Assembly (NCBI GenBank): GCA_017433225.1
Contig: JAFRHS010000044.1
Location: 28,317-92,316, forward strand
Reading direction: 5' to 3'
Source of the DNA: Clostridia bacterium
GTDB lineage: Bacteria > Bacillota > Clostridia > Oscillospirales > Acutalibacteraceae
Length of the DNA: 64,000 bases
This document shows, piece by piece, positions 624 through 29,526 of the stretch (position 1 is its first letter; the number at the start of each line of letters is the position of its first letter). The position numbers were made by a program, and so were the translations under genes. The notes under the pieces are model-generated. The model saw only the letters and a program-made list of their open reading frames with translations, made no database searches and was not told the DNA's origin.

Positions 624-666
624 ACCAAAAAGCCCACAGCGGACCGCTGAGAGCATTTTAGAGGGG

Positions 667-1137: not shown

Positions 1138-1354
1138 TGCGTCCATACGGAGCGGGACAAAGAGCGCCCGCGGGTAGGCATTCAGCTGGAACTTCATTTT
1201 CTGTTATGGTGTTCTGCCATTTCTCCATAGCAGGGTTACATTCATACAGTTGTTGCCTAAAAGGGAGTTTCATTGTCTCGGTCACAGTCAGCCTTTCTAT
1301 TGCCCGTCGTGCAATTAATAATCATTCCCGCGGGCGTTCTTTAGCCCGCTCCGT

Positions 1355-1454
1355 GAAAAAGAAAAGACCCTGGGAAAGCCCAGGGCGTAGTCATTAACAA
1401 TAGGTCGGACCCGCGGGAAGTGGTCCCCTATCGCCGTGCTTATCATAGCACAGA
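1355..1454 (-). ncRNA. Candidate ~100-nt countertranscript antisense to the leader of the xis-primase operon
   Basis: Minus-strand promoter TTGAAA (1489-1484), 16-17 nt spacer, CATAAT/ATAATA (1467-1461). Three hairpins follow at 1436-1451, 1400-1431 and 1368-1385, the last followed by a U-run (complement of 1355-1367). Confidence 0.3.
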
Positions 1455-1464
1455 AAGAGGTATT

Positions 1465-1671
1465 ATGCAAAAAGACAGAACCGTTTCAAACTGGGATAAA
1501 TTGCCAGTGGTTTTAGATGTCCACACCGTAGCACTTATCTTTGACGTTTCAGATCAGACCGTTAAGACCTGGTTACAAACCGGGAAACTGAAAGCCACAA
1601 AGGTTGCCCGCAAATGGGTCATTGACCGCGACTATATCCGTGGAATCGTTCAAGGGGGTGCGACTTTATGA
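1465..1671 (+). CDS. Excisionase-type (HTH_17/MerR-like) DNA-binding protein
   Basis: ATG 1465 lies 4 nt after AGAAAGAGG. LPVVLDVHTVALIFDVSDQTVKTWLQTGKLKATKVARKWVIDRDYI matches the excisionase-family HTH pattern. Its stop overlaps the next ATG (ATGA). Confidence 0.7.
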   Translation: MQKDRTVSNWDKLPVVLDVHTVALIFDVSDQTVKTWLQTGKLKATKVARKWVIDRDYIRGIVQGGATL

Positions 1672-2171
1672 GCGGCACAGGTATTGTAAGAGCCTACTTG
1701 GCGATGAACCCGGAAACCAGGAAAAGCGACTACGAATTGGCGCGGCGCGTCTATCACACTGTGGGTTACCGTTACGGTGTCACTAAGGCAGAAGTAGATG
1801 CTGCCATCGACACCCTGGAAAAGCTACACCCCACATTTAGGTCCATCATCCGGCTGCGGTCTGTTATCACCAGGAGCCACCCGGAATGGACAGACCCGGA
1901 AACGGAGAGAAAACGGAAAAAGAACGAACCAAAATACAGGGCCCGATACAGTAATGGCAAAGAGCCCGCGCCCCCTTATGAGATCCCGGCGGAGATCATA
2001 GCGCAAAACCGTGAGATCGAACTAACCAGGGTAATTATGATCCTTCTCACCCTGCAGATGCCCGGCTCCGCAATTAAGGCCGCAGTGGATGCTGTCAACA
2101 ATGAGCGATGCAGGCCCCCGTTGGATACAGACACTTTGACCCTTTTGTTTGATGGGAGCGGGATAGAATGA
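1668..2171 (+). CDS. Stand-alone PriCT-1-like domain protein (167 aa)
   Basis: C-terminal YEIPAEIIAQNREIELTRVIMILLTLQMPGSAIKAAVDAVNNERCRPPLDTDTLTLLF aligns with YEFPAEIVEGQRNSELYKAACSLLGRGLSETAARAALNAENLEKCSPPLDDAEIEQLF inside the 757-aa primase. Translationally coupled on both sides. Confidence 0.6.
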   Translation: MSGTGIVRAYLAMNPETRKSDYELARRVYHTVGYRYGVTKAEVDAAIDTLEKLHPTFRSIIRLRSVITRSHPEWTDPETERKRKKNEPKYRARYSNGKEPAPPYEIPAEIIAQNREIELTRVIMILLTLQMPGSAIKAAVDAVNNERCRPPLDTDTLTLLFDGSGIE

Positions 2172-2368
2172 GCACTAGCAGATGGGGCGAACACTGGGAA
2201 GATGAAGAAAACGAGGAAGGACTATCCCGGGGCCTTTTGGAAAGACGTTTCTTTGACGATGAAATACTGCCCGCATTCGCTGAGGAATACGACATAAACC
2301 TATATGACATAGAGGACCCGTCCGACTACTACGAGGATGCTATGGACTGGTACGACGATAATTATTAA
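2168..2368 (+). CDS. Hyper-acidic 66-aa protein (possible DNA mimic)
   Basis: By my count 23 of 66 residues are D/E, with only 4 R and no K. Aromatic-rich. ATGA overlap with the upstream gene. Confidence 0.55.
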   Translation: MSTSRWGEHWEDEENEEGLSRGLLERRFFDDEILPAFAEEYDINLYDIEDPSDYYEDAMDWYDDNY

Positions 2369-2421
2369 AGCAAAGGCGGCGGCTCAGGGCCGCTGCCTAT
2401 TTTTGAAAGAGGGTTGATGCA

Positions 2422-4695: not shown

Positions 4696-5598
4696 GAGAC
4701 ACTGAAAAAGCCGATTTTTCGCCTTTTCCAAAAACCACGTAGTTACGCCATTTGTGCAGTTTGTGCAGTTTAGTATCGTTTTTTCCCGGGAAAACAAAAT
4801 TAAAAAAAATATAGAATAAAACTGCACAAACTGCACATTTCAGCCTAATGAATATTATTCATTCGCTTATTTGCCGTAAAACAACGGTAAATTGTGTATG
4901 AATATGCAAAACAGCGCTTGTTTATGCATATATCCACCCTCTTTTATGCATAACTGCAGCTGGAGCGGGTGGAGAATTATACAAAATACGTCTTTTATCC
5001 TAAATGGTTTTAGGCGGCTCAGCTGCTAGCCGCCTGGGGCTGCTTATAGTACAGTGGATCAATCGCCCTGGGGTTCACAATATGATATTATTGCCATAGA
5101 CCCGTTAGGGTCGTATCAGCCTTTCTGTTTCCCGGTCCTGTATCGCCACAGGGCCGGGATCTCTTTTTAAGTTCGAACATATCGAACCTTTCTTTTTTTA
5201 GGGGCGCACCTTCCGCGAGATACTCCCCTTTTTTTGGGGCTGTATTATCTGACGATGCACCCCTTTTTTAGGGGCTCAGAAATGACGGAAAGCTCTTTTT
5301 AAGGTGGCAGGTATAGAAGGATGGCATTTCACGTAATGCCTGCCTACGGCCTTATTTGAGGCAATAATACACTTGCCCACTGCCCAGGCGGAATATAGGC
5401 AATACTTCAAAATGGGATCAAGTGGTATAACTTTGGTATAACTTTGTATACCAGTTTTTCCAGCACCGACGTAGTTACGCCGTTACCTGGGCTTGATTTT
5501 GGTATACATTTTGGTATACACCATAGCGAAAAATAGGGGCAAAGTACGATAAGTTGTACATTTTATTTTCTGATTTGGAAAAATAATATTTATGAAAA
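4696..5598. repeat. Non-coding iteron/inverted-repeat field, probable replication origin of the island
   Basis: Tandem TTTGTGCAG x2 (4751-4771) with an inverted copy at 4819-4837 around an AT-rich core. TTTATGCATA x2 (4921-4951). Five YCYTTTTT(T)AGGGGC-like units about 30-38 bp apart (5161-5300). Four GGTATA(A/C) units (5424-5522). Three ACGTAGTTACGC copies. Confidence 0.5.
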
Positions 5599-5638
5599 AA
5601 CGCTCAAAAACCACGTAGTTACGCGATTTTTGAGCGTT
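5593..5638 (-). terminator. Intrinsic terminator of tRNA-Pro
   Basis: 12-bp stem AACGCTCAAAAA/TTTTTGAGCGTT (5599-5610 / 5627-5638) with a 16-nt loop, followed on the minus strand by a U-run. Confidence 0.65.
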
Positions 5639-5644
5639 TCCTCT

Positions 5645-5720
5645 TGGTCCGAGTGGCGAGACTTGAACTCACGGCCTCTTGACCCCCAGTCAAGCGCGCT
5701 ACCAACTGCGCCACACCCGG
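5645..5720 (-). tRNA. tRNA-Pro (anticodon GGG), CCA encoded
   Basis: Hand-folded reverse complement: CCGGGTG TG GCGC AGTTGGTA GCGC G CTTGA CTGGGGG TCAAG AGGCC GTGAG TTCAAGT CTCGC CACTCGG A CCA. 76 nt. Confidence 0.9.
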
Positions 5721-5741
5721 ATATGCAATTCGTGCTCAACT

Positions 5742-5770
5742 ATAATAACAGAAAGGGGACCCAGAATCAA
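5742..5770 (-). promoter_or_regulatory. Sigma-A-type promoter of tRNA-Pro
   Basis: Minus strand TTGATT, 17 nt spacer, TATTAT, about 20 nt upstream of the tRNA 5' end. Confidence 0.55.
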
Positions 5771-5800
5771 CACCAATTTTTTGAGTTTACGGGTGGTTCA

Positions 5801-10038: not shown

Positions 10039-10123
10039 GCGAGAGTGGCGGAATTGGCAGACGCGCACGTTTGAGGGGCGTGTGGAGTGATTCGTACGGG
10101 TTCAAGTCCCGTCTCTCGCACCA
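10039..10123 (+). tRNA. tRNA-Leu (anticodon GAG), CCA encoded
   Basis: GCGAGAG TG GCGGAATTGGCAGACGC G CACGT TTGAGGG GCGTG, long variable arm, GGGTTCAAGTCCCGT CTCTCGC A CCA. Confidence 0.9.
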
Positions 10124-10129
10124 AAAAAT

Positions 10130-10159
10130 AGCCGACCCGTATGGGTCGGCTGTTTTTTT
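10130..10159 (+). terminator. Intrinsic terminator after tRNA-Leu(GAG)
   Basis: AGCCGACCC GTAT GGGTCGGCT followed by TTTTTTT. Confidence 0.8.
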
Positions 10160-10164
10160 GTCCT

Positions 10165-10289
10165 GACGGGACTTGAACCTTTAGGCCGGAGCGTTAAGAA
10201 AACAGCACGGTGGGCTGTTTTTAGCGACGGGAGGTGCGGCAGCACCTCGGTGCGGCTTGCGAAGCAAGACGCATCAAGTCCCGTCTCTC
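10165..10289 (+). repeat. tRNA-Leu-linked cassette A: conserved ~89-nt module flanked by an inverted and a direct copy of the tRNA T-arm/acceptor 3' segment
   Basis: GACGGGACTTGAACC (10165-10179) is the exact reverse complement of tRNA GGTTCAAGTCCCGTC. CAAGTCCCGTCTCTC (10275-10289) repeats the tRNA 3' part. The module is about nine-tenths identical to 21475-21563 by hand alignment. Confidence 0.6.
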
Positions 10290-17390: not shown

Positions 17391-17432
17391 ATCAATTTTT
17401 TGAATCGATGTAATGTCGAGAAGGAGGATCTT

Positions 17433-18776
17433 ATGAGTAAGCTCACAAAAGAACAGATTTTGCAGAGCGCAAAAGAGAATCACGTGGAATTTGTCAGACT
17501 TCAGTTCACCGACCTGTTTGGCATCATGAAGAACGTTGCCATCACGGTGTCGCAGCTCGAAAAGGCGCTGGACAATGAGTGCATGTTCGACGGGTCCTCG
17601 ATCAACGGATTCGTTCGCATCGACGAGAGCGACATGTATCTGCATCCCGATTATGACTCCTGGGCGATCGTTCCCTGGAGAAAGCACGAAGAGATCCAGA
17701 CCGGCCGTCTGATCTGTTCTGTCTATATGTCCGACAACAAGACCCCGTTTGAAGGCGATCCGCGAAACGTGTTCCAGAAAGTCATCGACGAGGCAAAAGA
17801 GATGGGTTACGGTTTCAACGTTGGCCCCGAGTGCGAATTCTTCCTTTTCAAACTGGACGAGGAAGGAAAACCGACTACCGAGGTCGCGGACAAGGCCGGG
17901 TATTTCGACCTGAACCCGATCGACCACGGCGAGAACTGCCGGAGAGATATCTGTCTGGCGCTCGAACAGATGGGTTACGTGATCGAGGCATCCCACCACG
18001 AAGTCGCGGAAGGACAGCATGAGATCGACTTCCAGTTCGGCGAAGGCCTCATGACCGCCGACCGTGTCATGACCTTCAAACATGTCGTCAAGACCTATGC
18101 CACCAAGCACGGCCTGCATGCGACGTTCATGCCGAAACCCATCTACGGCATCAACGGCTCCGGCATGCACACCAATATGAGCCTTTACGAACTCGAGACC
18201 GGCAAGAACGTCTTCGACGATCCGGACGGCGACCTCGGTCTTTCCAAAGAGGCCTATGCGTTCATCGCCGGCATCATGGAACACGTCAAAGGCATCGCGG
18301 CCTTCTCGAACCCGACCGTCAACTCCTACAAGCGTCTGGTGCCCGGCTATGAGGCTCCGAGCTACCTCGTCTGGAGCACTTCCAACCGCTCCTGCCTGGT
18401 CCGGATCCCGGCCAGCCGCGGCAAGGGCACCCGTGTCGAGCTCCGCTGCCCGGACCCGACCTGCAACCCGTACCTGGAGATGGCGCTCTGCCTTGCAGCC
18501 GGTCTGGACGGCATCAAAAGAGGACTTGTTCCGAAACCCGCTTATGACGAGAATGTGTTCGTGCTGAGCGATGAGGAACTGGCTGCCAACGGCATCGACT
18601 GTCTGCCGGGCACTCTGGAAGAGGCCATTGCCGAAGCCGAAAAAGACCCGTTCGTCCGCGAGACCCTCGGCGCTCATGTATTCGACAATTACATCGCCGG
18701 AAAGAAAGCGGAATGGGACGACTACAGAACGAAGATCTCTCAGTGGGAGATCGACCAGTATCTGATCAACTATTAA
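17433..18776 (+). CDS. glnA: Glutamine synthetase type I
   Basis: 447 aa. GPECEFFLF, HHEVAEGQHEIDF, GSGMHTNMS, NSYKRLVPGYEAP, RVELRCPDP all intact. AAGGAGG Shine-Dalgarno. Confidence 0.95.
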   Translation: MSKLTKEQILQSAKENHVEFVRLQFTDLFGIMKNVAITVSQLEKALDNECMFDGSSINGFVRIDESDMYLHPDYDSWAIVPWRKHEEIQTGRLICSVYMSDNKTPFEGDPRNVFQKVIDEAKEMGYGFNVGPECEFFLFKLDEEGKPTTEVADKAGYFDLNPIDHGENCRRDICLALEQMGYVIEASHHEVAEGQHEIDFQFGEGLMTADRVMTFKHVVKTYATKHGLHATFMPKPIYGINGSGMHTNMSLYELETGKNVFDDPDGDLGLSKEAYAFIAGIMEHVKGIAAFSNPTVNSYKRLVPGYEAPSYLVWSTSNRSCLVRIPASRGKGTRVELRCPDPTCNPYLEMALCLAAGLDGIKRGLVPKPAYDENVFVLSDEELAANGIDCLPGTLEEAIAEAEKDPFVRETLGAHVFDNYIAGKKAEWDDYRTKISQWEIDQYLINY

Positions 18777-18788
18777 GGGGAGACACCT

Positions 18789-19796
18789 ATGATCTATCCG
18801 ATCTATCCGGAAGGATATCACAGTAAACTCAGTCAGAGAGAAACGCAATACGCGATCAAAACGGTCAAAGATACGTTCCAGTTCAAACTCAGCAAAGCGC
18901 TGAACCTCGACCGCGTGACCGCGCCGCTCATGGTGACGGAGGCCAGCGGTCTCAACGATGACCTGAACGGTGTGGAGCGAAAAGTCACCTTTACGATGAA
19001 GAACATGGAAGGGGAGGGCCAGGTCGTTCAAAGCCTTGCCAAATGGAAGCGCCACGCGCTCTGGTACTATGGCTATGAGCCCGGGACCGGCATCTATACC
19101 GACATGAACGCCATCCGCCGGGACGACGATATGGACAACCTGCATTCTCTGTATGTCGACCAGTGGGACTGGTGCCGGGTCATCCGCCGGGAAGACCGCA
19201 ACCGGGAATTCCTGCATGACATCGTCAAAAAGATCGTCCGTGCGATCGTTGAGACGAACGACGTCGTCAAAGAGACCTATCCGATGCTGGGCTTTGAGAT
19301 GAGTGACGAAGTCTATTTCGTCACGACCCAGGAACTGGAAGACCGCTGGCCGGAGCTGAGCCCGAGAGAGCGTGAGGACGCCATCGTCAAAGAACACGGG
19401 ACCGTGTTCATCGAACAGATCGGCGGCGCTCTGAAGAGCGGTCAGAAACATGACGGCCGTGCGCCGGACTATGATGACTGGTCGCTCAACGGCGACATCT
19501 TCGCATGGAACGAGCTCCTCGGCTGCGCGTTCGAGATCAGCTCGATGGGCATCCGTGTCGACGCCGAGAGCATGCATCGCCAGCTGGAGATCGAGGGCTG
19601 CCTCGACCGGGAGGAACGTCCGTTCCACAAAGGGATCCTGGACGGCACCCTGCCGCTCACCATCGGAGGCGGCATCGGTCAATCGCGCATGTGTATGCTG
19701 CTCCTGGAAAAAGCGCACATCGGCGAAGTGCAGTGCGCACTCTGGCCCGATGAGATGCGTGCGGAATGTGCCGAGCACGGCATCATCCTACTGTGA
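18789..19796 (+). CDS. asnA: Aspartate-ammonia ligase
   Basis: 335 aa with an AsnA-type class II synthetase-like sequence (TAPLMV, GIGQSRMCMLLL). 12 nt after glnA. Confidence 0.9.
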   Translation: MIYPIYPEGYHSKLSQRETQYAIKTVKDTFQFKLSKALNLDRVTAPLMVTEASGLNDDLNGVERKVTFTMKNMEGEGQVVQSLAKWKRHALWYYGYEPGTGIYTDMNAIRRDDDMDNLHSLYVDQWDWCRVIRREDRNREFLHDIVKKIVRAIVETNDVVKETYPMLGFEMSDEVYFVTTQELEDRWPELSPREREDAIVKEHGTVFIEQIGGALKSGQKHDGRAPDYDDWSLNGDIFAWNELLGCAFEISSMGIRVDAESMHRQLEIEGCLDREERPFHKGILDGTLPLTIGGGIGQSRMCMLLLEKAHIGEVQCALWPDEMRAECAEHGIILL

Positions 19797-19798
19797 AC

Positions 19799-21247
19799 AT
19801 GTTGAATAAACTCCATGAAGAGTGCGGCGTCTTCGGCCTGTTCGAACCGACGACCAAGGATGTCGCACACTCGGTTTACCTTGCCCTCTATGCGCTTCAG
19901 CACAGAGGGCAGGAAGCTTGTGGGATCGTCGTGAACGACGACGGGGTCTTTTCCCACCACAAGGGCGACGGACTGGTCCATGAGGTGTTCCCGGAAGAAC
20001 GTCTTTCCGCACTGGGGACGGGGAACATGGCGGTCGGCCATGTCCGCTATTCCACGACCGGCGGCAAGAGCCTCAGCAATATCCAGCCCCTCGTCATCCG
20101 TCATATCAAGGGCAATATGGCGCTCGCGCATAACGGGAACCTCGTCAATGCGGCGGAACTGCGCCGGCAGTTCGAACTGTCCGGAGGCATCTTCCACGGG
20201 ACTTCCGACACGGAGGCGATCGCTTATACGATCGTGTCTCATCGTCTGCATTCCGCCAGTACGGAGGAGGCCATCGAAAAGACGATGGAATCGATCTCCG
20301 GCGCGTATTCGTGCATCGTCATGACGGCGACCAAGATGATCGCCTTCCGTGACCCGAACGGCTTCCGTCCGCTCTGTCTGGGGCGGACCGAAGAGGGTGC
20401 CTGGGCAGTCAGCAGTGAGTCCTGTGCGCTCGAGTCCATCGGTGCCTCGTTTGTGCGCGATGTACTGCCGGGAGAGATCATCATCCTCTCGAAAGACGGA
20501 GTCGGGTCCAACACGAAGCATTGTCTTCCGGCTGCAAAACGCAGTGCCTGTGTCTTTGAATACATCTACTTTGCCCGCCCGGACTCGGTGCTGGACGGCG
20601 CCTCGGTCCACCGTGCCCGCATGCGGGCCGGCGCCTTCCTCGCGAAGGAGCACCCGGTGGACGCGGATATCGTCATCGGAGTCCCGGACTCCGGGCTGGA
20701 CGCGGCGCTGGGCTACGCCAGAGAGAGCGGGATCCCTTACGGGGTCGGTTTCATCAAGAATAAATATATCGGGCGCAGCTTCATCGAACCGAGCCAGGGA
20801 CAGAGGGAAGACGCGGTCAAGATCAAACTGAACGTGATCCGGGAAACGGTCGCCGGGAAGCGTGTCATCATGATCGACGATTCCATCGTCCGCGGGACGA
20901 CCTGCGCGCGGATCGTCCGCCTTCTGCGCGAGGCCGGTGCCGCAGAGGTCCATATGCGGGTCTCTTCTCCGCCGTTTCGCCATGAGTGCTTCTTTGGCAC
21001 CGATGTCGACAGCAGCGACAACCTGATCGCCTGCCGCTATGACACGGTGGAAGAGATCGGGGAGGAGATCGGCGTCGACTCGCTCGGGTACCTGTCGGTC
21101 GAGGCGACACACCGTCTGGCGGACACCGCGGCGGTCGGGTTCTGTGACGGCTGTTTTACCGGCTGTTATCCGATCCCGGTGCCGGATGAGATCGAAAAGA
21201 ACAAGTTCGATCAGAAACTGGGAGCATTCCCTCTGGCAGTGGAATGA
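19799..21247 (+). CDS. purF: Amidophosphoribosyltransferase
   Basis: N-terminal MLNKLHEECGVFG (Cys nucleophile), PRTase motif VIMIDDSIVRGTT and a C-terminal Cys cluster. 2 nt after asnA. Confidence 0.95.
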   Translation: MLNKLHEECGVFGLFEPTTKDVAHSVYLALYALQHRGQEACGIVVNDDGVFSHHKGDGLVHEVFPEERLSALGTGNMAVGHVRYSTTGGKSLSNIQPLVIRHIKGNMALAHNGNLVNAAELRRQFELSGGIFHGTSDTEAIAYTIVSHRLHSASTEEAIEKTMESISGAYSCIVMTATKMIAFRDPNGFRPLCLGRTEEGAWAVSSESCALESIGASFVRDVLPGEIIILSKDGVGSNTKHCLPAAKRSACVFEYIYFARPDSVLDGASVHRARMRAGAFLAKEHPVDADIVIGVPDSGLDAALGYARESGIPYGVGFIKNKYIGRSFIEPSQGQREDAVKIKLNVIRETVAGKRVIMIDDSIVRGTTCARIVRLLREAGAAEVHMRVSSPPFRHECFFGTDVDSSDNLIACRYDTVEEIGEEIGVDSLGYLSVEATHRLADTAAVGFCDGCFTGCYPIPVPDEIEKNKFDQKLGAFPLAVE

Positions 21248-21272
21248 GTCCGATAAAAAAGAAAATTTCCCG

Positions 21273-21301
21273 TTGCATTTGAGCGGTTGCTGTGCTATTA
21301 T
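21273..21301 (+). promoter_or_regulatory. Sigma-A-type promoter of tRNA-Leu(CAG)
   Basis: TTGCAT, 17 nt spacer, TATTAT. Confidence 0.5.
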
Positions 21302-21342
21302 ATTCAAGCAGTCAACGCGGGTCTCCCGCTTGACATACATAT

Positions 21343-21429
21343 GCGGACGTGGCGGAATTGGCAGACGCGCTAGATTCAGGTTCTAGTGAATGCAAGTTCA
21401 TGTGGGTTCAAGTCCCGTCGTCCGCACCA
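21343..21429 (+). tRNA. tRNA-Leu (anticodon CAG), CCA encoded
   Basis: GCGGACG TG GCGGAATTGGCAGACGC G CTAGA TTCAGGT TCTAG, long variable arm, GGGTTCAAGTCCCGT CGTCCGC A CCA. Confidence 0.9.
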
Positions 21430-21430
21430 G

Positions 21431-21471
21431 GAAACAGCGAACACGCTTATGCGTATTCGCTGTTTCTTTTT
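21431..21471 (+). terminator. Intrinsic terminator after tRNA-Leu(CAG)
   Basis: GAAACAGCGAACACGC TTAT GCGTATTCGCTGTTTC followed by TTTTT. Confidence 0.8.
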
Positions 21472-21474
21472 GCG

Positions 21475-21735
21475 GACAGGGACTTGAACCGAAGGCCGGA
21501 GCGTCAGGAAAACAGTCCGGTGGACTGTTTTTAGCGACGGGAGGTGCGGCAGCACTTCGGTGCAATTTCGCAAAGCGAAATTGCAGTACGGTCAGAAACA
21601 TAGTCGTCTCGCTCGCTTGGAGCGCGTCGCGATACTCCTTGTTTCTTCCTGTTCGACGACACTGCTTCATCTGCCGCAGGCAGCGCAGTGCCGCGAACCA
21701 AGTCCCGTCGTCCGCACGGCGGCAGTCCCGTCGTC
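21475..21735 (+). repeat. tRNA-Leu-linked cassette B: same conserved module, longer, with two further direct copies of the tRNA 3' segment
   Basis: GACAGGGACTTGAACC (21475-21490) is an inverted T-arm copy. The module runs to 21563. CAAGTCCCGTCGTCCGCAC (21699-21717) and AGTCCCGTCGTC (21724-21735) repeat this tRNA's own 3' end. Confidence 0.6.
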
Positions 21736-21853
21736 GTTTATTTACATCTTGTACACCATACATCCTTGCGTTTTAATCGGGTAATTGGTAGAATTTTACA
21801 CGGTAAGTTTCTTGCTGATTATGTATGTAAATTTCATGAATGGGAGAGATTTT

Positions 21854-23314
21854 ATGGCTGAAGAAAAAACCAAAGCTCCTGCTTATGAAGCAGGTCAGGC
21901 GATCTACGACGCCACCAAACTGGGCACCCCCAGAATGGTCGTCCTGGGTCTCCAGCACATGTTTGCCATGTTTGGCGCCACGGTCCTCGTTCCGCTGATC
22001 ACCGGACTCGATGTCTCGACGACTCTGCTCTTTGCCGGTCTCGGCACATTGCTGTTCCACTTCATCACGAAGATGAAAGTGCCCGCGTTCCTGGGTTCTT
22101 CCTTCGCGTTCCTCGGCGGTTACGCCGCCATCACCGGTCTTACCGATCAATCCATGACGCAGGCCCAGCTCCTGCCGTACGCCTGCTTCGGCGTCGCCTG
22201 TGCCGGTCTCGTCTATCTGATCCTTGCGGCGGTCATCCGTGCCTTTGGTACGTCCAAAGTCATGAGATACTTCCCGCCGGTCGTCACCGGTCCCATCATC
22301 GTGGCCATCGGTCTCGGCCTGTCCGGTTCCGCAGTCACGAACTGCCAGGAGAACTGGCTCGTCGCGTTCTCCGCACTCATCGTCGTCATCATGTTCAACA
22401 TCTGGGGCGTCGGTATGATGCGGATCATCCCGATCATCATGGGCGTCATCGTCTCCTACATCGTCGCCATCCTGTGCCACGATGTCGATTTCACACCCAT
22501 CAAAGAAGCTGCCTGGATCGGCTCTCCGATCCACTGGTCCAGCACCGTCTTCGGCGGCGTGGACTTCGCAAACAGCTCCCTGGTCCTCACGGCCATCATC
22601 GCCATCGTCCCGATCGCGCTCGCGACCATGATGGAGCACATCGGCGACATCTCCGCCATCGGCGCTACCGTCGGCAAGAACTACATCGCCGACCCGGGTC
22701 TCCACAGAACACTGACCGGTGACGGTCTTGCGACCACCATCGCGTCCCTCTTCGGCGCTCCCGCCAACACCACTTACGGTGAGAACACCGGCGTCCTCGC
22801 GCTGACCAAGGTCTACGACCCGAAGGTCATCCGCATTGCAGCGTGCTTCGCGGCGGTCCTGTCCTTCAGCCCGAAGTTCGCGGCCATCATCCACACCATC
22901 CCGACCGCGACCATCGGCGGCATCTCCTTCGTCCTTTACGGTATGATCTCCGCTGCCGGTCTCCGCAACATGGTCGAGTCCCATGTCGACTTCTCCAAGA
23001 GCCGGAACCTCATCATCGCGGCGGTCATCCTGGTCTGCGCACTCGGCATGACGGACGGTCTGACCTTCCATCTCGGCTCCGTCGCCATCACGCTGTCCGC
23101 ACTGGCCGTCGGCTCCATCGCCGGCATCCTGCTCAACGCCATCCTTCCGGGCAAAGACTTCACGTTCGATGAGTCCGACCCGAAAGACACCGGCGCCGAC
23201 CTCTCTCTTGAGAATGTCGCTCTCGAAAAACAGAAGGCTTACGGCGAGAAGAAAGCCAGAGAAAAGGCTGCTGTGAAAAAACTGAAAGCAACGGCGGTAA
23301 ATTCCGAAGAATGA
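21854..23314 (+). CDS. NCS2-family nucleobase (uracil/xanthine-type) permease with charged C-terminal tail
   Basis: GLQHMFAMFGATVLVPLITG and an ENTGVLALT-type motif. Multi-TM. ATG 21854 follows GGGAGAG. Confidence 0.85.
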   Translation: MAEEKTKAPAYEAGQAIYDATKLGTPRMVVLGLQHMFAMFGATVLVPLITGLDVSTTLLFAGLGTLLFHFITKMKVPAFLGSSFAFLGGYAAITGLTDQSMTQAQLLPYACFGVACAGLVYLILAAVIRAFGTSKVMRYFPPVVTGPIIVAIGLGLSGSAVTNCQENWLVAFSALIVVIMFNIWGVGMMRIIPIIMGVIVSYIVAILCHDVDFTPIKEAAWIGSPIHWSSTVFGGVDFANSSLVLTAIIAIVPIALATMMEHIGDISAIGATVGKNYIADPGLHRTLTGDGLATTIASLFGAPANTTYGENTGVLALTKVYDPKVIRIAACFAAVLSFSPKFAAIIHTIPTATIGGISFVLYGMISAAGLRNMVESHVDFSKSRNLIIAAVILVCALGMTDGLTFHLGSVAITLSALAVGSIAGILLNAILPGKDFTFDESDPKDTGADLSLENVALEKQKAYGEKKAREKAAVKKLKATAVNSEE

Positions 23315-23325
23315 AATATTTAGTG

Positions 23326-23354
23326 TTGCAATTTTCATAATATCGTATTATAAT
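23326..23354 (+). promoter_or_regulatory. Sigma-A-type promoter of gltBD
   Basis: TTGCAA (23326-23331), 17 nt spacer, TATAAT (23349-23354). Confidence 0.55.
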
Positions 23355-23377
23355 AATTGCAACCTGAGTGGCGAAGA

Positions 23378-23421
23378 AGTCACAGAACGCAGAGGATTCT
23401 GCGCTCTGTGACTCTTTTTTT
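23378..23421 (+). terminator. Promoter-proximal intrinsic terminator (attenuator) in the gltB leader
   Basis: AGTCACAGA A CGCAGA GGAT TCTGCG C TCTGTGACT followed by CTTTTTTT. Lies about 40 nt upstream of the gltB ATG. Confidence 0.75.
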
Positions 23422-23459
23422 ATGCTTCTCACAAACTCCTCTGGGAGGGACTGTCAAGA

Positions 23460-26400
23460 ATGAAAAATGAAACTTTGCAAAACAATCTGCTCTACAGTGA
23501 GCAGTTCGAACACGATGCCTGCGGGATCGGGACCGTGGTCTCCATCAAAGGGGAGGCGTCCCGGCGGATCGTCGACAGCGCATTGAAGATCGTCGAGAAA
23601 CTGGAACACCGGGCCGGAAAAGATGCGGCCGGGGAGACCGGAGACGGTGTCGGCATCATCGTCGCCACCCCGCACGAGTTCTTCAAAGCCAAAGCGGCGG
23701 AGTGCGGCATCGAACTGGGCGATGCACGGGAATACGGCATCGGCATGCTGTTCCTGCCGCAGGACAAACTGCGCCGGGCACAGGCCAAGAAGATGCTCGA
23801 GATCATCACCGCCAAAGAAGGTCTCCGATTCCTCGGCTGGCGGGTCGTCCCGACCTGTCCCGAGACGCTCGGGCAGAAAGCGATCGACAAGATGCCGTAC
23901 ATCGAGCAGTGTTTCATCGAAAAGCCGGCCGACTGCGCGAAGGGCATCGACTTTGACCGCAAACTCTACGTCATCCGCCGGGTCTTCGAACAGTCCAACG
24001 ACAACACGTATGTCTGCTCGCTGTCCTCCCGGACCATCGTTTACAAAGGCATGTTTCTCGTCCAGCAGCTGAGAAGCTTCTATCGGGACCTCCAGGAAGA
24101 GGACTTCGTCTCGTCCATCGCGATGGTCCACTCCCGATTCTCCACCAACACGAACCCCAGCTGGGAACGGGCGCACCCGAACCGGTTCATCGTCCACAAC
24201 GGCGAGATCAACACCATCCGCGGCAACGCGGACCGGATGCTCGCCAGAGGCGAGACCATGGAATCGCCGTTCCTGAATGAGAACTACGAAAAGATCCTGC
24301 CGGTCGTCGATACCGCCGGGTCCGATTCCGCCATGCTCGACAACACGCTCGAGTTCCTCGTCATGAACGGCATGGACCTGCCGCTCGCGATGATGATCTG
24401 TGTCCCGGAACCCTGGAAGTCCGATGACACCATGAGCCGCGAGAAAAAGGACATGTACCACTACTATTCCACGATGATGGAACCCTGGGACGGCCCTGCG
24501 GCCCTGCTGTTCACCGACGGCGACCAGGTCGGCGCCTGTCTCGACCGGAACGGTCTGCGGCCCTCCCGCTACTATGTGACCGATGACGACCTGCTCATCC
24601 TGTCCTCGGAAGTCGGTGTCCTGCCGCTGGACGACCGGCACATCGTCAAAAAGTCCCGTTTGCAGCCCGGAAAGATGCTGCTCATCGATACGAGAGAGGT
24701 ACGCATCATCTCCGATGACGAGTGCAAAGAGCGGTACGCACATCGCCACCCTTACGGAGAATGGCTCGACCTGTACCTCAAAACGCTGCACGAACTGCCG
24801 ATCCCCAATAAGAAAGTGGAGGAGTCCACGCAGGAAGTCCGGGACCGTCTCTACAAGGTCTTCGGCTACACCTATGAGGACATCAATACGTCCATTCTGC
24901 CGATGGCGAAAAACGGCTCGGAGCCGATCGCTGCCATGGGCATCGACATCCCGCTGGCCGTCCTCTCCGAAAAGCACCAGCTGCTGTTCAGCTATTTCAA
25001 ACAGCTGTTCGCGCAGGTGACGAACCCGCCGATCGACGCCATCCGGGAAAAGGTCATCACCGATACCCAGGTCTACGTCGGTTCGGACGGCAACCTTCTG
25101 GAGGACAAAGGAGACAACTGCCAGGTCCTCGAGATCAGCCATCCGATCCTGACCAGTGTCGACCTTTTGAAGATCAAAAACATGGATCTGCCCGGCCTGA
25201 AAGTGGCGACGGTCAGCATCCTGTATTACAAGAACACGTCCCTCGAAAAGGCGGTCGACCATCTCTATGTGGAGTGCGACAAAGCCTACAAGAAGGGCGC
25301 GAACATCATCATCCTGTCGGACCGCGGCGTCGACGAGAACCACGTGGCGATCCCGTCGCTGCTGGCCGTCTCGGCGATGGAGCAGTACCTCATCCGGACC
25401 AAGAAGAGGACGGCGATCTCCATCATCCTGGAGAGTGCCGAACCCCGCTGCGTCCACGACTTTGCGACGCTTCTCGGCTACGGCGCCCGGGCGGTCAACC
25501 CGTACCTCGCGCACGAGTGCATCGAAGAGTGCATCGAGAAGGGCCTTCTCGACAAGGACCCCCATACGGCGATCGACGACTACAACGAGGCGGTGCTGAA
25601 CGGCATCGTCAAGATCGCCTCCAAAATGGGGATCTCGACCATCCAGTCTTACCAGTCCGCACAGATCTTCGAGATCGTCGGGATCCGGGAAGACGTCGTC
25701 GAGAAATACTTCACCAATACCGTGAGCCGTGTCGGCGGCATCGGCCTTCCGGAGATCGCGGAAGGGGTCGAATACCGGCATGACCACGCCTTTGACCCGC
25801 TGGGCCTCGGCACCGACACCACCGTCGACAGTATGGGTTACCACAAGCTGCGCAACGGCGCCGGGAAAGAGGATCATCTCTATGACCCGCGGACCATCAT
25901 CCACCTGCGCAGAGCGGTCCAGGACGGCGATTATGAGCGGTTCAAAGAGTATTCCGCCATGGTCGACGATGAGAACGTCCCGCATACCTTGCGCGGACTC
26001 CTGGCATTCGAATACCCGGAACAGGGCATCCCGCTCGAAGAAGTGGAACCCGCTTCCGAGATCGTCAAACGCTTCAAGACCGGTGCCATGTCCTACGGAT
26101 CTCTCTCCCGAGAGGCCCACGAATGCATGGCAGTGGCGATGAACCGTCTCGGCGCAAAGTCCAATACCGGTGAGGGCGGCGAACTGCGCGACCGGTTCGG
26201 GACCGAGCGCAACAGCGCGATCAAACAGGTCGCGTCCGGCCGCTTCGGCGTCACGAGCGAATACCTCGTCTCGGCCAAAGAGATCCAGATCAAACTGGCG
26301 CAGGGCGCGAAACCCGGCGAGGGCGGTCACCTCCCGGGCAAAAAAGTGTATCCCTGGGTCGCGGCGACCCGGTTCTCCACACCCGGCGTTTCGCTGATCT

Positions 26401-27995
26401 CTCCGCCGCCGCACCACGACATCTATTCCATCGAGGACCTGGCGCAGCTCATCTATGACCTGAAAAACGCCAACCGCGATGCGCGCATCAACGTCAAACT
26501 CGTCTCCGAGGCGGGGGTCGGCACCATCGCCTCCGGCGTCGCCAAGGGCGGGGCAGAGGTCATCCTCATCTCCGGCTATGACGGCGGTTCGGGCGCGGCT
26601 CCTCTGAGCTCGCTCCACAACGCCGGTCTGCCGCTGGAACTCGGCCTCGCCGAGACGCACCAGACGCTCATCGAGAACGGCCTGCGTACGCGGGTCCGGG
26701 TCGAGGCCGACGGCAAACTGATGACCGGCCGCGACGTGGCGATCGCCTGCATGCTGGGCGCCGAAGAGTTCGGCTTTGCCACGACGCCGCTGATCGCCAT
26801 GGGATGCGTCATGATGCGTGTCTGCAATCAGAACACCTGTCCGGTCGGCATCGCGACCCAGGACCCGCGCCTGCGGGCTCGCTTTGCCGGAAAACCGGAA
26901 TACGTCATCAACTTCATGATGTACATCGCCGAAGAACTGCGTGAGATCATGGCAAAACTCGGTGTCCGCACCGTCGAGGAACTCGTCGGGCGCACAGACT
27001 TCCTGAAAGTGAAAGAGAAGGCGATCACACACCGCGCCGCCATGGTAGACCTTTCGAAGATCCTCGGGAACCACAATGCGGACGGCTGCAACGCAGTCCA
27101 CCATATCGACGGCGACGAGTTCGATTTCTGTCTGGAAGAGACTCTGGACATGAAAGAACTGGTCCCCGCGTTCCGCAAAGCGCAGAAGGCGGGGAAACCG
27201 ATGGATCTCGCGCTCGAGGTCACGAGCACGGACCGTTCGTTCGGCACGATCCTCGGTTCGGAAGTGACCAGAGCGTACGGCATCGATGCACCGGAAGACC
27301 TGTGCCGTGTCCGCTGCAAAGGCGGCGGCGGTCAGTCGTTCGGAGCGTTCCTGCCAAAGGGCGTCTCCATCCGGCTCGAAGGGGACTGTAACGACTATTT
27401 CGGCAAAGGACTCAGCGGAGGGAATCTGGCCGTATATCCGCCGGAAGATGCCGCATTCCGGGCGGAAGAGAACATCATTATCGGCAACGTCGCTCTGTAC
27501 GGCGCCACCGCCGGCAAGGCATTTGTCCGCGGCATTGCGGGCGAGCGGTTCTGTGTCCGGAATTCCGGCGCGGAAGCCGTCGTCGAAGGCGTCGGAGACC
27601 ACGGCTGTGAATACATGACCGGAGGTACGGTCGTCGTTCTGGGACGCACCGGAAAGAACTTTGCGGCCGGGATGAGCGGCGGGACCGCCTACGTCCTCGA
27701 CGAAGAGCATGATCTGTACCGCAGACTCAACAAGGAAATGGTCGAAGTGAGTACGGTCAGCAGCAAGGCGGACATTTCCAAACTGAAGGAGATGCTGGAG
27801 GAGCATGTCGCCGCCACCGGCTCTGAACTGGGGCAGAGGATCCTCGACTCGTTCGATGACTATGTCCCGTCCTTCAAGAAGATCATCCCGCACGAGTATG
27901 CGGTCATGAAAGACAAGATCTACGAAGAACTCAGCAAAGGCCTGTCGCAGGAGGATGCCGAACTCGAGGCATTCAACGCGCTGATGGGCGCATAA
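23460..27995 (+). CDS. gltB: Glutamate synthase large subunit
   Basis: 1511 aa. N-terminal EHDACGIG amidotransferase, FMN and Fe-S domains, GXGG repeats in the C-terminal domain. Confidence 0.95.
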   Translation: MKNETLQNNLLYSEQFEHDACGIGTVVSIKGEASRRIVDSALKIVEKLEHRAGKDAAGETGDGVGIIVATPHEFFKAKAAECGIELGDAREYGIGMLFLPQDKLRRAQAKKMLEIITAKEGLRFLGWRVVPTCPETLGQKAIDKMPYIEQCFIEKPADCAKGIDFDRKLYVIRRVFEQSNDNTYVCSLSSRTIVYKGMFLVQQLRSFYRDLQEEDFVSSIAMVHSRFSTNTNPSWERAHPNRFIVHNGEINTIRGNADRMLARGETMESPFLNENYEKILPVVDTAGSDSAMLDNTLEFLVMNGMDLPLAMMICVPEPWKSDDTMSREKKDMYHYYSTMMEPWDGPAALLFTDGDQVGACLDRNGLRPSRYYVTDDDLLILSSEVGVLPLDDRHIVKKSRLQPGKMLLIDTREVRIISDDECKERYAHRHPYGEWLDLYLKTLHELPIPNKKVEESTQEVRDRLYKVFGYTYEDINTSILPMAKNGSEPIAAMGIDIPLAVLSEKHQLLFSYFKQLFAQVTNPPIDAIREKVITDTQVYVGSDGNLLEDKGDNCQVLEISHPILTSVDLLKIKNMDLPGLKVATVSILYYKNTSLEKAVDHLYVECDKAYKKGANIIILSDRGVDENHVAIPSLLAVSAMEQYLIRTKKRTAISIILESAEPRCVHDFATLLGYGARAVNPYLAHECIEECIEKGLLDKDPHTAIDDYNEAVLNGIVKIASKMGISTIQSYQSAQIFEIVGIREDVVEKYFTNTVSRVGGIGLPEIAEGVEYRHDHAFDPLGLGTDTTVDSMGYHKLRNGAGKEDHLYDPRTIIHLRRAVQDGDYERFKEYSAMVDDENVPHTLRGLLAFEYPEQGIPLEEVEPASEIVKRFKTGAMSYGSLSREAHECMAVAMNRLGAKSNTGEGGELRDRFGTERNSAIKQVASGRFGVTSEYLVSAKEIQIKLAQGAKPGEGGHLPGKKVYPWVAATRFSTPGVSLISPPPHHDIYSIEDLAQLIYDLKNANRDARINVKLVSEAGVGTIASGVAKGGAEVILISGYDGGSGAAPLSSLHNAGLPLELGLAETHQTLIENGLRTRVRVEADGKLMTGRDVAIACMLGAEEFGFATTPLIAMGCVMMRVCNQNTCPVGIATQDPRLRARFAGKPEYVINFMMYIAEELREIMAKLGVRTVEELVGRTDFLKVKEKAITHRAAMVDLSKILGNHNADGCNAVHHIDGDEFDFCLEETLDMKELVPAFRKAQKAGKPMDLALEVTSTDRSFGTILGSEVTRAYGIDAPEDLCRVRCKGGGGQSFGAFLPKGVSIRLEGDCNDYFGKGLSGGNLAVYPPEDAAFRAEENIIIGNVALYGATAGKAFVRGIAGERFCVRNSGAEAVVEGVGDHGCEYMTGGTVVVLGRTGKNFAAGMSGGTAYVLDEEHDLYRRLNKEMVEVSTVSSKADISKLKEMLEEHVAATGSELGQRILDSFDDYVPSFKKIIPHEYAVMKDKIYEELSKGLSQEDAELEAFNALMGA

Positions 27996-28010
27996 AGGAG
28001 GGGAGACAAT

Positions 28011-29498
28011 ATGGGTAAAACAACAGGATTCCTGGACTATGACCGGAAGACCAACCCGGCCGTCGCTCCTCTTCAGAGGCTGCAGGACTTTCACGAATTC
28101 CACCCGCCGCTGCAGGTGGAGGAACGGCAGGAGCAGGCAGCGCGCTGTATGAACTGCGGCATCCCGTTCTGCCAGTCTGCCGTGGCATTCGGAAAAGGGC
28201 CGGCCGTCTCCGGCTGTCCGCTCCACAACCTTATTCCGGAGTGGAACGACGAATTGTATAACGGTCATTACGAGAGCGCAAAAGCCCGTCTTTTGAAGAC
28301 GGCCAGTTTCCCGGAGTTCACCGGACGTGTCTGCCCGGCCCTCTGTGAGGTGGCCTGCACCTGCGGGCTGAACGGAGACCCTGTCACAGTACGGGAGAAT
28401 GAACTCTTTCTCATCGAACAGGCCTATGCCACCGGGAACATGAAGCCGCATGCGCCCGCCGTCCGTACCGACAAAACGGTCGCGGTCATCGGTTCCGGAC
28501 CCTCCGGCCTCGCCACCGCGGATGCCCTCAATAAACGCGGGCACAATGTCACTGTCTTTGAGCGGGAAGACCGCATCGGCGGACTGCTGATGTACGGGAT
28601 CCCGAATATGAAACTGGAGAAACAGATCATCGAGCGCCGCAGGGCGCTGATGGAGGCCGAAGGTGTCGTGTTCCGAACGGGTTGCAACGTGGGGGCAGAC
28701 GTCTCTGCAGAAGAGCTTCTGGCGGAATACGATGCCGTGGTCCTCTGCTGCGGCGCCAAACAGGCCCGCACGCTGAATGTCGGAGAAGAACAGGTCGGGA
28801 ACGTCTTTCCTGCTGTCGACTTTCTGACCCGCCAGACCCGGAACCTGCTCTCCGGAAACGCAATGACGGAGGCAAAAGGGAAAAAGGTCATCATCGTCGG
28901 CGGCGGAGACACCGGGAACGACTGTGTCGGCACCTGTCTCCGTGAAGGCTGCGCCTCGGTCACACAGATCGAAATGATGCCGAAACCGCCGGCAGAACGT
29001 CCGGCGAGCAATCCCTGGCCCGAATGGCCGGTCCAGCTCAAAACGGACTACGGCCAGGAAGAGGCGATCGCGGTGTTCGGCAAAGATCCGCGCATCTATC
29101 AGACCACCATCAAGGAAGTCATCCCGAACAAAAAAGGTCTCATCAAAGCGGTGAAGACCGTGAAACTGGAGTTTGAACGGGACCCGGAGACCGGCCGGAT
29201 GATGCCTCGGGAAGTCGAAGGTTCCGAAGAGACGCTGGCCTGCGACCTTCTGCTGATCGCAGCCGGATTCACCGGATGTGAAGCCTACACGCCGGGCGCG
29301 TTCCATGTGGAATGCGGTCCCCGGAACACCGTTCAGACCTCTGCCGGAAGCTATGCGACCGGTGTGGAGAAAGTCTTTACGGCGGGCGACATGCACCGGG
29401 GCCAGTCTCTGGTCGTCTGGGCCATTGCCGAAGGCAGGGCCTGCGCAGTGGAAGTAGACCGATATCTGATGGGTTATACCAACCTTCCGTTGGTGTGA
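28011..29498 (+). CDS. gltD: Glutamate synthase small subunit (NADPH)
   Basis: 495 aa. Cys clusters CMNCGIPFC and CPALCEVAC. Dinucleotide folds [12 protein letters not shown] and [13 protein letters not shown]. Confidence 0.95.
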
Positions 29499-29526
29499 TC
29501 TGTTGATATATACTCCATTCTTGACA

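Follow-up and report, generated by a model that had tools for sequence, protein, structure and literature searches.

In the window, as the whole 64,000-nt stretch of DNA analysed here is called, two of the three tRNA genes are each followed by a short cassette in which a structured module stands between two copies of the adjacent tRNA's 3' end, one inverted and the other direct; three copies occur on one 118-kb contig. These are best read as members of a family of non-coding, non-autonomous insertion cassettes colonising the 3' side of tRNA transcription units, the hosts being a clade of uncultured ruminant-gut Clostridia. Comparison of alleles demonstrates that the cassettes are insertions, that they are polymorphic, and that they form arrays and decay. 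The family has apparently not been described before: no account of a tRNA-trailing element with tRNA-matched inverted and direct arms was found in full-text searches of the literature. The features of the two window loci, locus A at tRNA-Leu(GAG) and locus B at tRNA-Leu(CAG), are as follows, where IR is the inverted repeat, DR2 the direct repeat and hp3 a variable hairpin; loci compared with them carry L numbers.

10039..10123, plus strand: tRNA-Leu(GAG), source of the brackets of cassette A.
10124..10164, plus strand: native terminator of tRNA-Leu(GAG) with 5 nt of native flank (GTCCT), by homology to the terminators of the empty loci L066 and L067.
10165..10289, plus strand: cassette A, a complete single copy (covariance model, 115.6 bits) without counterpart at the orthologous L066/L067 sites; its parts are the IR (10165-10179), module 1 with hp3 (10179-10273) and the direct copy TCAAGTCCCGTCTCTC (10274-10289).
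21343..21429, plus strand: tRNA-Leu(CAG) (ARAGORN; Rfam tRNA, 51.7 bits).
21430..21471, plus strand: term1, a terminator-like palindrome (A-tract, imperfect stem-loop, T-tract) right after CCA, from the sequence and its inverted repeat.
21472..21490, plus strand: IR, GCGGAC-A-GGGACTTGAACC, the complement of tRNA positions ~52-72 with a 2-nt gap; an identical IR stands in the module-less allele L073.
21489..21562, plus strand: module 1 (alignment, covariation, covariance model), consisting of the mini-hairpin CC-GAA-GG, helix P2 (21496-21502 with 21534-21540, tandem G.A inside), hairpin H1 (terminator-like, 21509-21531) and hairpin H2 (21541-21558).
21561..21585, plus strand: hp3-type hairpin, TGCAATTTCGC AAA GCGAAATTGCA, from its inverted repeat and the allele alignment.
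21586..21698, plus strand: module 2, a second structured repeat family with the 3' end ...CGCGAACC; copies in L021/L023, L038, L042 and L058.
21699..21717, plus strand: direct copy of the tRNA 3' end, CAAGTCCCGTCGTCCGCAC.
21724..21735, plus strand: shorter second direct copy, AGTCCCGTCGTC.

The source of the repeats at locus B is the last 22 nt of tRNA-Leu(CAG), from T-loop position 55 to CCA. Both direct copies are present exactly where the earlier note, made from the letters of this DNA, had placed them. The 19-nt CAAGTCCCGTCGTCCGCAC is located at 21409-21427 inside the tRNA gene and again, without a mismatch, at 21699-21717, a pair of matches that arose in 0 of 100 shuffles of the window, and the 12-nt AGTCCCGTCGTC has its third occurrence at 21724-21735. 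The inverted copy, reported there at 21475-21490 with one extra A, is real, but it is longer: TGCGGAC-A-GGGACTTGAACC occupies 21471-21490 and, but for 2 missing nt, corresponds in reverse complement to the final ~22 nt of the tRNA. Together, the tRNA end, the terminator and the inverted copy constitute an imperfect palindrome of ~85 nt (21405-21446 / 21451-21490). A simple terminator scan missed term1 because its stem has a mismatch; the same terminator is present in L073 and L074, and different ones are found in other alleles of locus B. The module shared between cassettes A and B, also claimed previously, is borne out by an identical 26-mer at 10220-10245 and 21530-21555 (0 expected by chance), by an identical block of 31 nt within the module, and by the covariance model, which matches the window at 10179-10289 and 21489-21601 only (106.8 bits for the latter, in cassette B).

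That the cassettes are insertions can be observed at locus A, where the order SBP - tRNA-Leu(GAG) - MFS is retained in relatives. The site is filled in L065, a relative with 87% MFS identity, and is empty in L066 (MFS protein 80% identical) and in L067/L068 (72%). The empty sites consist of the tRNA, a terminator and the MFS promoter, with IR, module and DR2 all missing. The tRNA-proximal terminators of filled and empty sites are homologous, with a CGTA(T/G)G loop and covarying stems, as listed here.

Window locus A, filled: TAGCCGACC-CGTATG-GGTCGGCTG
L056, filled: AACCAGACT-CGTATG-AGTCTGGTT
L066, empty: GGCTAGTAC-CGTATG-GTTCTAGCC
L067, empty: CACCGGATT-CGTAGG-AATCCGGTG

In addition, TTTTTTTGTCCT is common to L067 and to locus A of the window. 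Since the proximal terminator is homologous to those of the empty sites, the native terminator at locus A, the one locus from which this evidence comes, has not moved, and 10165-10289 was added behind it. Cassette A therefore lies downstream of an intact gene and terminator, unlike a native 3' end that has been split off by integrase-mediated integration. Locus B is likewise empty in L070/L071 (permease 85% identical), and the covariance model gave no match over the empty loci A and B of relatives. The flanking MFS and permease genes yielded these empty sites; purF-based synteny yielded none. The comparison of presence and absence among relatives that the earlier note had proposed thus gave empty sites at both window loci. 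Its suggestion of insertion-associated duplication at tRNA-Leu targets holds as regards insertion, and the cassettes are not specific to tRNA-Leu, being present behind at least 15 isoacceptors. A module lacking the duplications, which would have spoken against such an origin, was not seen; the converse, an inverted copy without a module, is present in L073.

Turnover within the window species, delimited by purF at 99-100% identity, was followed in the purF-permease spacer, which measures 498, 606 (window), 675 or 733 nt between identical flanks and holds one to three units, each ending in a tRNA 3' copy. The window allele can be derived from the 675-nt allele by removing what lies between module 1 and a half-module further downstream, and it has a different terminator and IR. 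Cassette B is a fusion of two cassettes, because its hp3 hairpin (21561..21585) is part of a second, half-deleted cassette in alleles L021/L023. It is thus a recombinant in which a deletion between two module copies fused module 1 to an older remnant of hp3 and module 2, and module 1 therefore runs directly into that remnant, which ends in two decayed direct copies. The ~135 nt regarded earlier as unique to this cassette are accordingly the hp3-type hairpin (21561-21585) and module 2 (21586-21698), of which module 2 recurs at tRNA-Leu(TAA) and tRNA-Leu(CAG) loci of other genomes. Module 2 (~113 nt; CGGTCAGAAACATAGTCG...CTGCCGCAGGCAGCGC...CGCGAACC; its stems covary) has a direct tRNA 3' copy behind it at tRNA-Leu(CAG) and tRNA-Leu(TAA) loci (window, L038, L042, L058); L058 has three copies of it, including 2755-2870 and 3139-3255, and the copy at ~912 stands without an adjoining tRNA copy. 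A stretch of 23 nt, GTCCCGTCGTCCGCACGGCGGCA, at ~21702-21724 (exact placement ambiguous within the repeat), is missing from L021/L023, and the invariant flank of locus B starts at ~21738 (TTTATTTACATC...). The extra 23 nt of the window allele make a small hairpin, ACGGCGG/CCGTCGT, followed by the T-rich stretch TTATTTAC (21716-21737); it scores as terminator-like in the scan and lies just upstream of the permease promoter region.

Two further contigs, L073 and L074, have an identical flanking permease and differ by a clean indel between ...GAACC and AATTAA. In L074 (1-300) the order is IR, module 1, hp3, DR2, mini unit and DR3; in L073 (1-100) the terminator and the idiosyncratic IR of L074 (GCGGAC-A-GGG...) are followed at once by the flank, with no module. 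L073 may be a product of excision or deletion, or a precursor allele. Tandem complete cassettes were found in L037, L040 and L047, short repeats of hp3 plus a direct repeat, or of a direct repeat alone, in L021, L035, L045, L054 and L057, and a cassette truncated after 10 nt of the module behind tRNA-Pro in L056. Alleles re-assort terminator, IR and module variant, such that one IR occurs with different modules and one module with different IRs or terminators, a pattern suggesting that homologous exchange is frequent, with conserved segments of tRNA, T-loop and module as its anchors.

The gene neighbourhood of locus B also differs between genomes. In the window species the tRNA and the permease gene lie between glnA-asnA-purF and gltBD (window 17400-29500). 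In relatives (L018, L069, L070) tRNA-Leu(CAG) and the permease lie between an acyltransferase gene and a convergent epimerase gene, and purF abuts gltB; a relative with an 80% identical purF likewise has purF abutting gltB and the tRNA-permease block elsewhere. From these different neighbours it follows that the nitrogen-assimilation genes and the tRNA-Leu(CAG) locus have been rearranged around each other. In L069 (genome GCA_965340255.1, 2000-2400) the tRNA-Leu(GAG) site is empty and a diverged cassette follows tRNA-Leu(CAG), both this tRNA and the cassette being inverted relative to the permease gene.

The distribution of the family was obtained with the degenerate pattern TTTAGNGANNGGAGNTGCGGCAGC, built from three module variants (window A, window B and a divergent allele of a conspecific contig). 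A scan of metagenome contigs, fragments of 1-21 kb, gave 34 loci, at which tRNAs were called by ARAGORN and distances and bracket matches were measured by script. At every locus with upstream DNA, the module core is preceded by a tRNA gene on the same strand that ends 95-108 nt from it. Fifteen isoacceptors are represented (Leu CAG/GAG/TAA/TAG, Pro CGG/GGG, Arg CCG/ACG, Met CAT, Val GAC, Lys TTT, Ser GCT/CGA, Glu TTC and Ala GGC), in addition to three or four tRNA 3' ends of unassigned type at the edges of contigs. Where an operon has two tRNAs (L047, L057), it is the last of them that the cassette stands behind and matches. The order is fixed: tRNA-CCA, terminator, IR, module, hp3, G, DR2. 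The terminator is of the A-tract / GC-stem / T-tract type and is different at every locus. The IR comprises the inverted T-loop, the 3' strand of the T-stem and part of the acceptor 3' strand of the adjacent tRNA, and its final ...GAACC stops 39-40 nt short of the core (42 nt at tRNA-Pro(GGG)). DR2 is a direct copy from T-loop position 55 (TCRA...) that starts 30-34 nt after the core in most copies, and later where hp3 is longer; it reaches CCA (22 nt) in 6 distinct cassettes, with a second terminator behind several of these. The left flank ...GAAC(C/T) and the right junction G|TCRA are constant, and the ends are hairpin-rich. The earlier note stated for the two window loci that each cassette duplicates the acceptor sequence of its own tRNA; a direct copy of the 3' end of its own tRNA is present in every one of ~25 distinct cassettes. 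DR2 is identical to the adjacent tRNA over 13-22 nt in most copies, and the best exact match of the IR spans 10-16 nt in about two-thirds of cassettes, falling to 5-8 nt in those with an altered T-loop part.

Downstream of DR2 in L057 (~4400-4610, minus strand) there are four tandem units of 33 nt, each composed of the tRNA-Glu 3' end (ATTCCCGTCCGGGTCACC) and a GCCGAAAGGC mini-hairpin. In L053 (~1900-2118) the cassette stands behind a tRNA 3' fragment from T54 (TTCGAATCCTGTCACCCCGACCA) with unrelated DNA before the fragment, an arrangement resembling the attR side of an element that has integrated into that tRNA's T-loop.

The transferable core is a structured module of ~95-110 nt within a whole unit that is uniform at ~170 bp. 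The structure alignment contained 23-28 distinct module copies. From 5' to 3', it displays a mini-hairpin of the form CC-GNA-GG or CCC-TT-GGG; helix P2 (C-NN-GA-GC / GC-GA-NN-G, with tandem G.A), which encloses H1 (AAAACAGTCC-TGT-GGACTGTTTT, resembling a bidirectional terminator); H2 (GAGCTGC-GGCA-GCAGCTC); and hp3, which is variable, usually centred on GNA triloops of the GCGAAGC type, with one purine-purine mismatch. Cassettes of tRNA-Pro(GGG), where the T-stem end reads AG, have a compensating extra mini-hairpin. Over 34 pairs, 92.1% of cells are paired compared with 83.6% in shuffles and at most 44.5% in slid controls. Changes on both sides occur at 12 pairs in 62 cells, a level reached in 0 of 500 shuffles, and four cells only are G.U, with A.C in none. 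With compensatory changes above control, the module is a conserved structured nucleic-acid element. Folded as single-stranded DNA, cassette A adopts a four-way junction closed by IR:DR2 (-39 kcal/mol, z = -6.4), and its complementary strand folds nearly as well (z = -6.0). The features that favour one strand, GNA loops and G.A pairs, lie on the tRNA-sense strand, and they point, suggestively rather than decisively, to single-stranded DNA over RNA. The perfect IR:DR2 stem has a median of 7.5 bp and is often broken, whereas the internal helices are kept; decaying by-products of insertion around a constrained core would look like this.

Searches for a partner of the module were negative. No open reading frame lies within the cassettes, and clustering of the open reading frames revealed no recurrent enzyme next to the 34 loci; the clusters consist of orthologous housekeeping genes and one apparently spurious frame through the conserved tRNA and cassette. 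The module had zero matches in viral contigs (two patterns), phage records and plasmid records. At the gathering thresholds of Rfam 15, only the three tRNAs pass in the window, and a permissive Rfam search of 21300-21860 returned sub-threshold chance matches only. A scan of genome contigs with the window 20-mer GCGACGGGAGGTGCGGCAGC, a minority variant in place of which most module copies read GGAGCTGC, gave 13 chance matches in unrelated high-GC taxa, none beyond 20-21 nt. GC skew was too weak to tell the leading from the lagging strand.

The origin of the brackets can be approached from the relation between modules and tRNAs. Modules do not cluster by tRNA type: those of tRNA-Met and tRNA-Arg(CCG) differ by 1-2 nt in 77, and the module copies at tRNA-Val, tRNA-Ser(GCT), tRNA-Arg(CCG) and tRNA-Leu(TAA) are, for each type, spread over different clusters. 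The H2 variant GGTGC/GCACC is found in the window species only, at both window loci, and the CACGAC/CATGCC variant likewise at both. From this distribution, the module has moved or been converted between tRNA types recently. DR2, in turn, always matches the resident tRNA, and the IR usually does. Since matches of 13-22 nt cannot come from point mutation, the brackets appear to have been templated locally, probably when a cassette inserts or shortly afterwards, with the resident tRNA gene as their source. As a rule the IR reproduces the resident tRNA apart from a small lesion, private to the copy, in the T-loop or where T-stem and acceptor meet. Cassettes of tRNA-Val(GAC) and tRNA-Arg(ACG) have in common an odd T-loop variant of the IR, GACGAAGAACC, so that the junction between imported and local sequence would lie inside the T-arm homology rather than at a constant terminus of the element. 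Every junction lies in T-loop sequence, read in one orientation or the other: ...GAACC| at the left, G|TCRA at the right, and GAACC|AAGT in the case of module 2. An origin of imperfect IRs from other tRNAs, which would mean carry-over from a previous site, was considered for L031 and L061, which fit tRNA-Met and tRNA-Ser(CGA), respectively, slightly better; these fits are ambiguous and are not evidence, and on inspection both IRs turn out to be resident sequence interrupted over 3-4 nt where T-stem and acceptor meet.

The route that we favour, at a confidence somewhat short of even, is copy-choice, in which homology and hairpins drive copying from the resident tRNA and the brackets would not be an attP brought in by an integrase-mobilised element. 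The tRNA, IR and DR2 would together represent a direct/inverted/direct triplication whose junctions are all in T-loop sequence. Errors of the fold-back and template-switch type are proposed because this order, with a palindrome (the terminator) at the first junction, is their signature, and direct/inverted/direct micro-triplications from replication errors at hairpins have been documented (PMC13334657). Initially, a nascent strand would snap back at the terminator palindrome and copy the tRNA 3' end backwards, giving the IR. Its end, complementary to the T-loop, could then switch into any existing cassette, T-loops being nearly universal. Having copied the module, the strand would return to the resident gene through T-loop homology, giving DR2, and later homologous recombination and deletion would reshape the locus. 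Several points weigh against this route. No intermediate or event has been observed, and the proposal is read from the anatomy of the junctions. The duplicate of the proximal terminator that is predicted behind the distal direct copy was seen at no locus; where second terminators are present (L033/L064, L039, L047, L061, L062) they differ from the first, and at the tRNA-Arg(CCG) locus the distal terminator looks conserved between two species. Later recombination must be invoked to account for these terminators. Moreover, conservation of the module, loops included, far beyond the neutral level argues for a trans-acting protein, copy-choice offers no reason for such well-kept loops, and a three-switch accident at at least 15 tRNA types seems improbable unless the module actively promotes it.

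The conservation just mentioned leads to the most serious rival, which we consider unlikely but well ahead of the others: a miniature element mobilised in trans. Here, the module would be a cis recognition site, probably folded single-stranded DNA in the manner of an integron attC site, the CTX phage attP or IS200/IS605 ends, and an unlinked recombinase or HUH nuclease would cut and join T-loop DNA, producing IR and DR2. A core conserved in both sequence and structure, with 62 double-change cells against four G.U, is what such a site would require, and the stabilisers specific to one strand (GNA triloops, mini-hairpins of the GCGAAGC type, tandem G.A) on the tRNA-sense strand agree with it, as do the constant ...GAAC(C/T) left flank and G|TCRA right junction. 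Head-to-tail arrays beside the tRNA recall integron cassettes, and the clean L073/L074 indel resembles excision or insertion. This rival has to contend with the lack of any candidate enzyme near the 34 loci, with sequences unlike the attC core RYYYAAC/GTTRRRY, and with two strands that fold almost equally in silico (z = -6.4 and -6.0). In addition, a cut-and-paste enzyme alone would leave tRNA-specific IR and DR2 at 15 types unexplained.

An origin from integrase and attP was the expectation of the earlier note, and in its present form the cassettes would be integrase relics, or mini-islands reduced to attachment (att) sites in the manner of cis-mobilisable elements (CIMEs), in tRNA 3' ends, with the direct copies as attL and attR. 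Repeats that run from the T-loop to the 3' end would suit the T-loop class of tRNA attachment sites reportedly distinguished by Williams in 2002, and in the window such direct repeats do bound the insert (19 and 12 nt). Tandem accretion beside the tRNA, a distal copy in L062 that fits the acceptor 5' strand better than the proximal copy, and the T54 fragment of L053, preceded by unrelated DNA as at an attR, agree with it as well; tRNA fragments are known as attR sites (PMC9897764). A genuine integrated element also abuts tRNA-Pro(GGG) in the window. Even so, this origin is improbable. No integrase was found inside or near the cassettes at the 34 loci, nor were related full-length elements in viral, phage and plasmid records. 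Where one tRNA species per element lineage would be expected, near-identical modules follow at least 15 isoacceptors, and one or a few integrase/attP pairs cannot account for them. At locus A the native terminator is proximal and the native 3' end with its downstream sequence has not been displaced, although this depends on the locus and tRNA-Arg(CCG) hints at the opposite. The uniform size of ~170 bp, with no remnant of element genes, and an inverted copy that would have no role count against it further.

Covariation, which backs a conserved fold, also brings a functional read-through RNA into consideration, in which IR:DR2 would mimic an acceptor/T-arm minihelix with a 3' NCCA and the module would be a protein-binding or regulatory domain; candidate roles are a small RNA linked to the tRNA, a processing signal or a decoy. 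Cassette and tRNA always share one orientation, the few non-Watson-Crick substitutions read as G.T, never as A.C, on the tRNA-sense strand (4 versus 0), and in cassette B and some others IR and DR2 rebuild the acceptor stem of the tRNA itself and then A-CCA. This reading is nevertheless very doubtful. The module lies behind a strong terminator, H1 is itself a canonical bidirectional terminator hairpin, and the module has neither space for a separate promoter nor any sign of one. G.U pairs hardly occur, an unusual trait in an RNA family; the IR:DR2 helix, disrupted in many copies, is without the acceptor part in cassette A; and Rfam gave no match to the module. A host gene would not typically be polymorphic for presence, truncated in some copies and arrayed in others, as selfish DNA typically is.

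A retro-origin is given equally little credence. A template-switching reverse transcriptase would extend a folded-back pre-tRNA (the IR), then take a module RNA and after it a tRNA 3' end as template (the direct copy), and the cDNA would recombine into the tRNA locus. Capture of tRNA 3' ends by template-switching reverse transcriptases has a precedent in the Mauriceville retroplasmid of Neurospora. In most loci the IR starts where the T-tract of the terminator stops, or within a few nt of it; transcripts end there, and their U-tail can pair with the A-tract upstream. Direct copies run exactly to CCA over a constant span of 22 nt, although CCA is not diagnostic, being genome-encoded in these tRNAs. 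Cassette A, however, has 5 nt of native flank between the T-tract and an IR lacking the acceptor part, which pure fold-back from a transcript 3' end does not fit; the polarity would demand an antisense module template, and no reverse transcriptase was seen near any locus. A T-box, tmRNA-like or Y-RNA-like gene, group II intron domain V, a retroviral-style primer-binding site, and long target duplications of the casposon or CRISPR type were rejected, being unfit in sequence, size or polarity.

Whether the cassettes represent a new class of non-coding mobile element targeting tRNA genes is a separate matter. On that reading a core of ~100 nt, probably folded single-stranded DNA, would be read by a putative T-loop-directed enzyme, and insertion would copy the 3' end of the target into both flanks, inverted and direct; we regard this as possible, though doubtful. 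That the underlying mechanism is new is similarly a tentative proposition, one that we would sooner doubt than assert. The cassettes matter in that tRNA genes are where phages and islands classically land, and a short repeat of a tRNA 3' end is routinely put down to an integrase scar. Here, the same signature comes from a tiny gene-less cassette on the 3' side of many, possibly most, tRNA units of the clade, and att sites or islands cannot safely be called from tRNA-fragment repeats alone. Should the target be the template of the brackets, DNA could spread among all tRNA genes without disrupting them, and if the new-class reading is true, the element would be retargeted automatically to every tRNA behind which it lands. 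Templating from the target would also expose either a T-loop-directed enzyme or a replication-driven self-propagating sequence. The covariance model and the clear empty and filled alleles make the mechanism testable in public rumen metagenomes.

The remaining tRNA gene of the window, tRNA-Pro(GGG) (5645-5720, minus strand), has a mobile element (window 1-5644) abutting its 3' end, and the window ends before any integrase. This element carries a primase-helicase of the Prim-Pol/D5 type (2422-4695), an HTH_17 excisionase-like open reading frame (1420-1671), GGTATAC repeats at ~5420-5520 and its own terminator right after the tRNA. In the conspecific L056 and L040, tRNA-Pro(GGG) faces the other way, towards the gene starting at 5917, and cassettes follow. 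A block of 112 nt found by BLAST (tRNA-Pro(GGG) and part of a promoter, 5642-5753) is inverted in the window, the inversion probably extending up to 5783, with a junction at 5783/5784.

Compared with known systems, the cassettes resemble the att scars of integrases (phages, integrative and conjugative elements, islands and CIMEs) in the direct tRNA 3' copy from the T-loop to CCA, in arrays beside the tRNA and in leaving the tRNA intact. Fragments of tRNA genes were reportedly recognised by Reiter in 1989 and Williams in 2002 as attL/attR of integrase-mediated insertions. In contrast to such scars, the cassettes have no integrase or element genes, at least 15 tRNA species per module, an extra inverted copy, and units of ~170 bp that at locus A lie downstream of the native terminator. 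With miniature inverted-repeat transposable elements (MITEs) and with REP-BIME, BOX, ERIC and Correia repeats they have in common that they are short, non-coding, hairpin-rich, multi-copy, strain-polymorphic and intergenic, often by terminators, with a mosaic build (module 1, module 2, mini units). Unlike these, they are tied to the 3' side of tRNAs in one orientation, their terminal repeats vary with the neighbouring tRNA, comparison of empty and filled sites displays no target-site duplication of 2-14 bp, and neither a transposase at the loci nor a related autonomous insertion sequence (IS) was found. Integron attC sites and the folded attP of CTX phage share with them compensatory changes, inverted arms around a variable centre, head-to-tail arrays and plausible single-strand folding. 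The consensus of the attC core sites R''/R' is RYYYAAC ... GTTRRRY. The cassette arms, ...TYGAACC and G|TCRA, depart from this, are locus-specific and derive from the tRNA; arrays start at the tRNA, no open reading frame is carried as cargo, and neither intI in the loci nor a link to Xer was found.

Tandem inversion duplications were reportedly treated by Kugelberg and colleagues in 2010. Such small inverted triplications (PMC13334657) resemble the cassettes in the direct/inverted/direct order, the first junction at a palindrome (the terminator), short breakpoint homology, and instability with removal over hairpins. They differ in that the cassettes have a conserved foreign module of ~100 nt at the second junction, at no locus show the predicted duplicate terminator, and recur at many loci, spreading between genomes as a family. 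Finally, group IIC introns, IS that target terminators or REP sequences, and PATEs derived from IS200/IS605 also insert right after an intrinsic terminator hairpin and have structured ends, a likeness to which the conserved pentanucleotide GAACC on the left flank of the cassette adds. The cassettes differ from these in having no intron or ribozyme core, no Rfam match, and no TnpA, TnpB or reverse transcriptase found at the loci, and their tRNA-derived brackets are unparalleled. Taken with these likenesses and differences, the cassette is best read as a non-autonomous, structured, intergenic insertion element.

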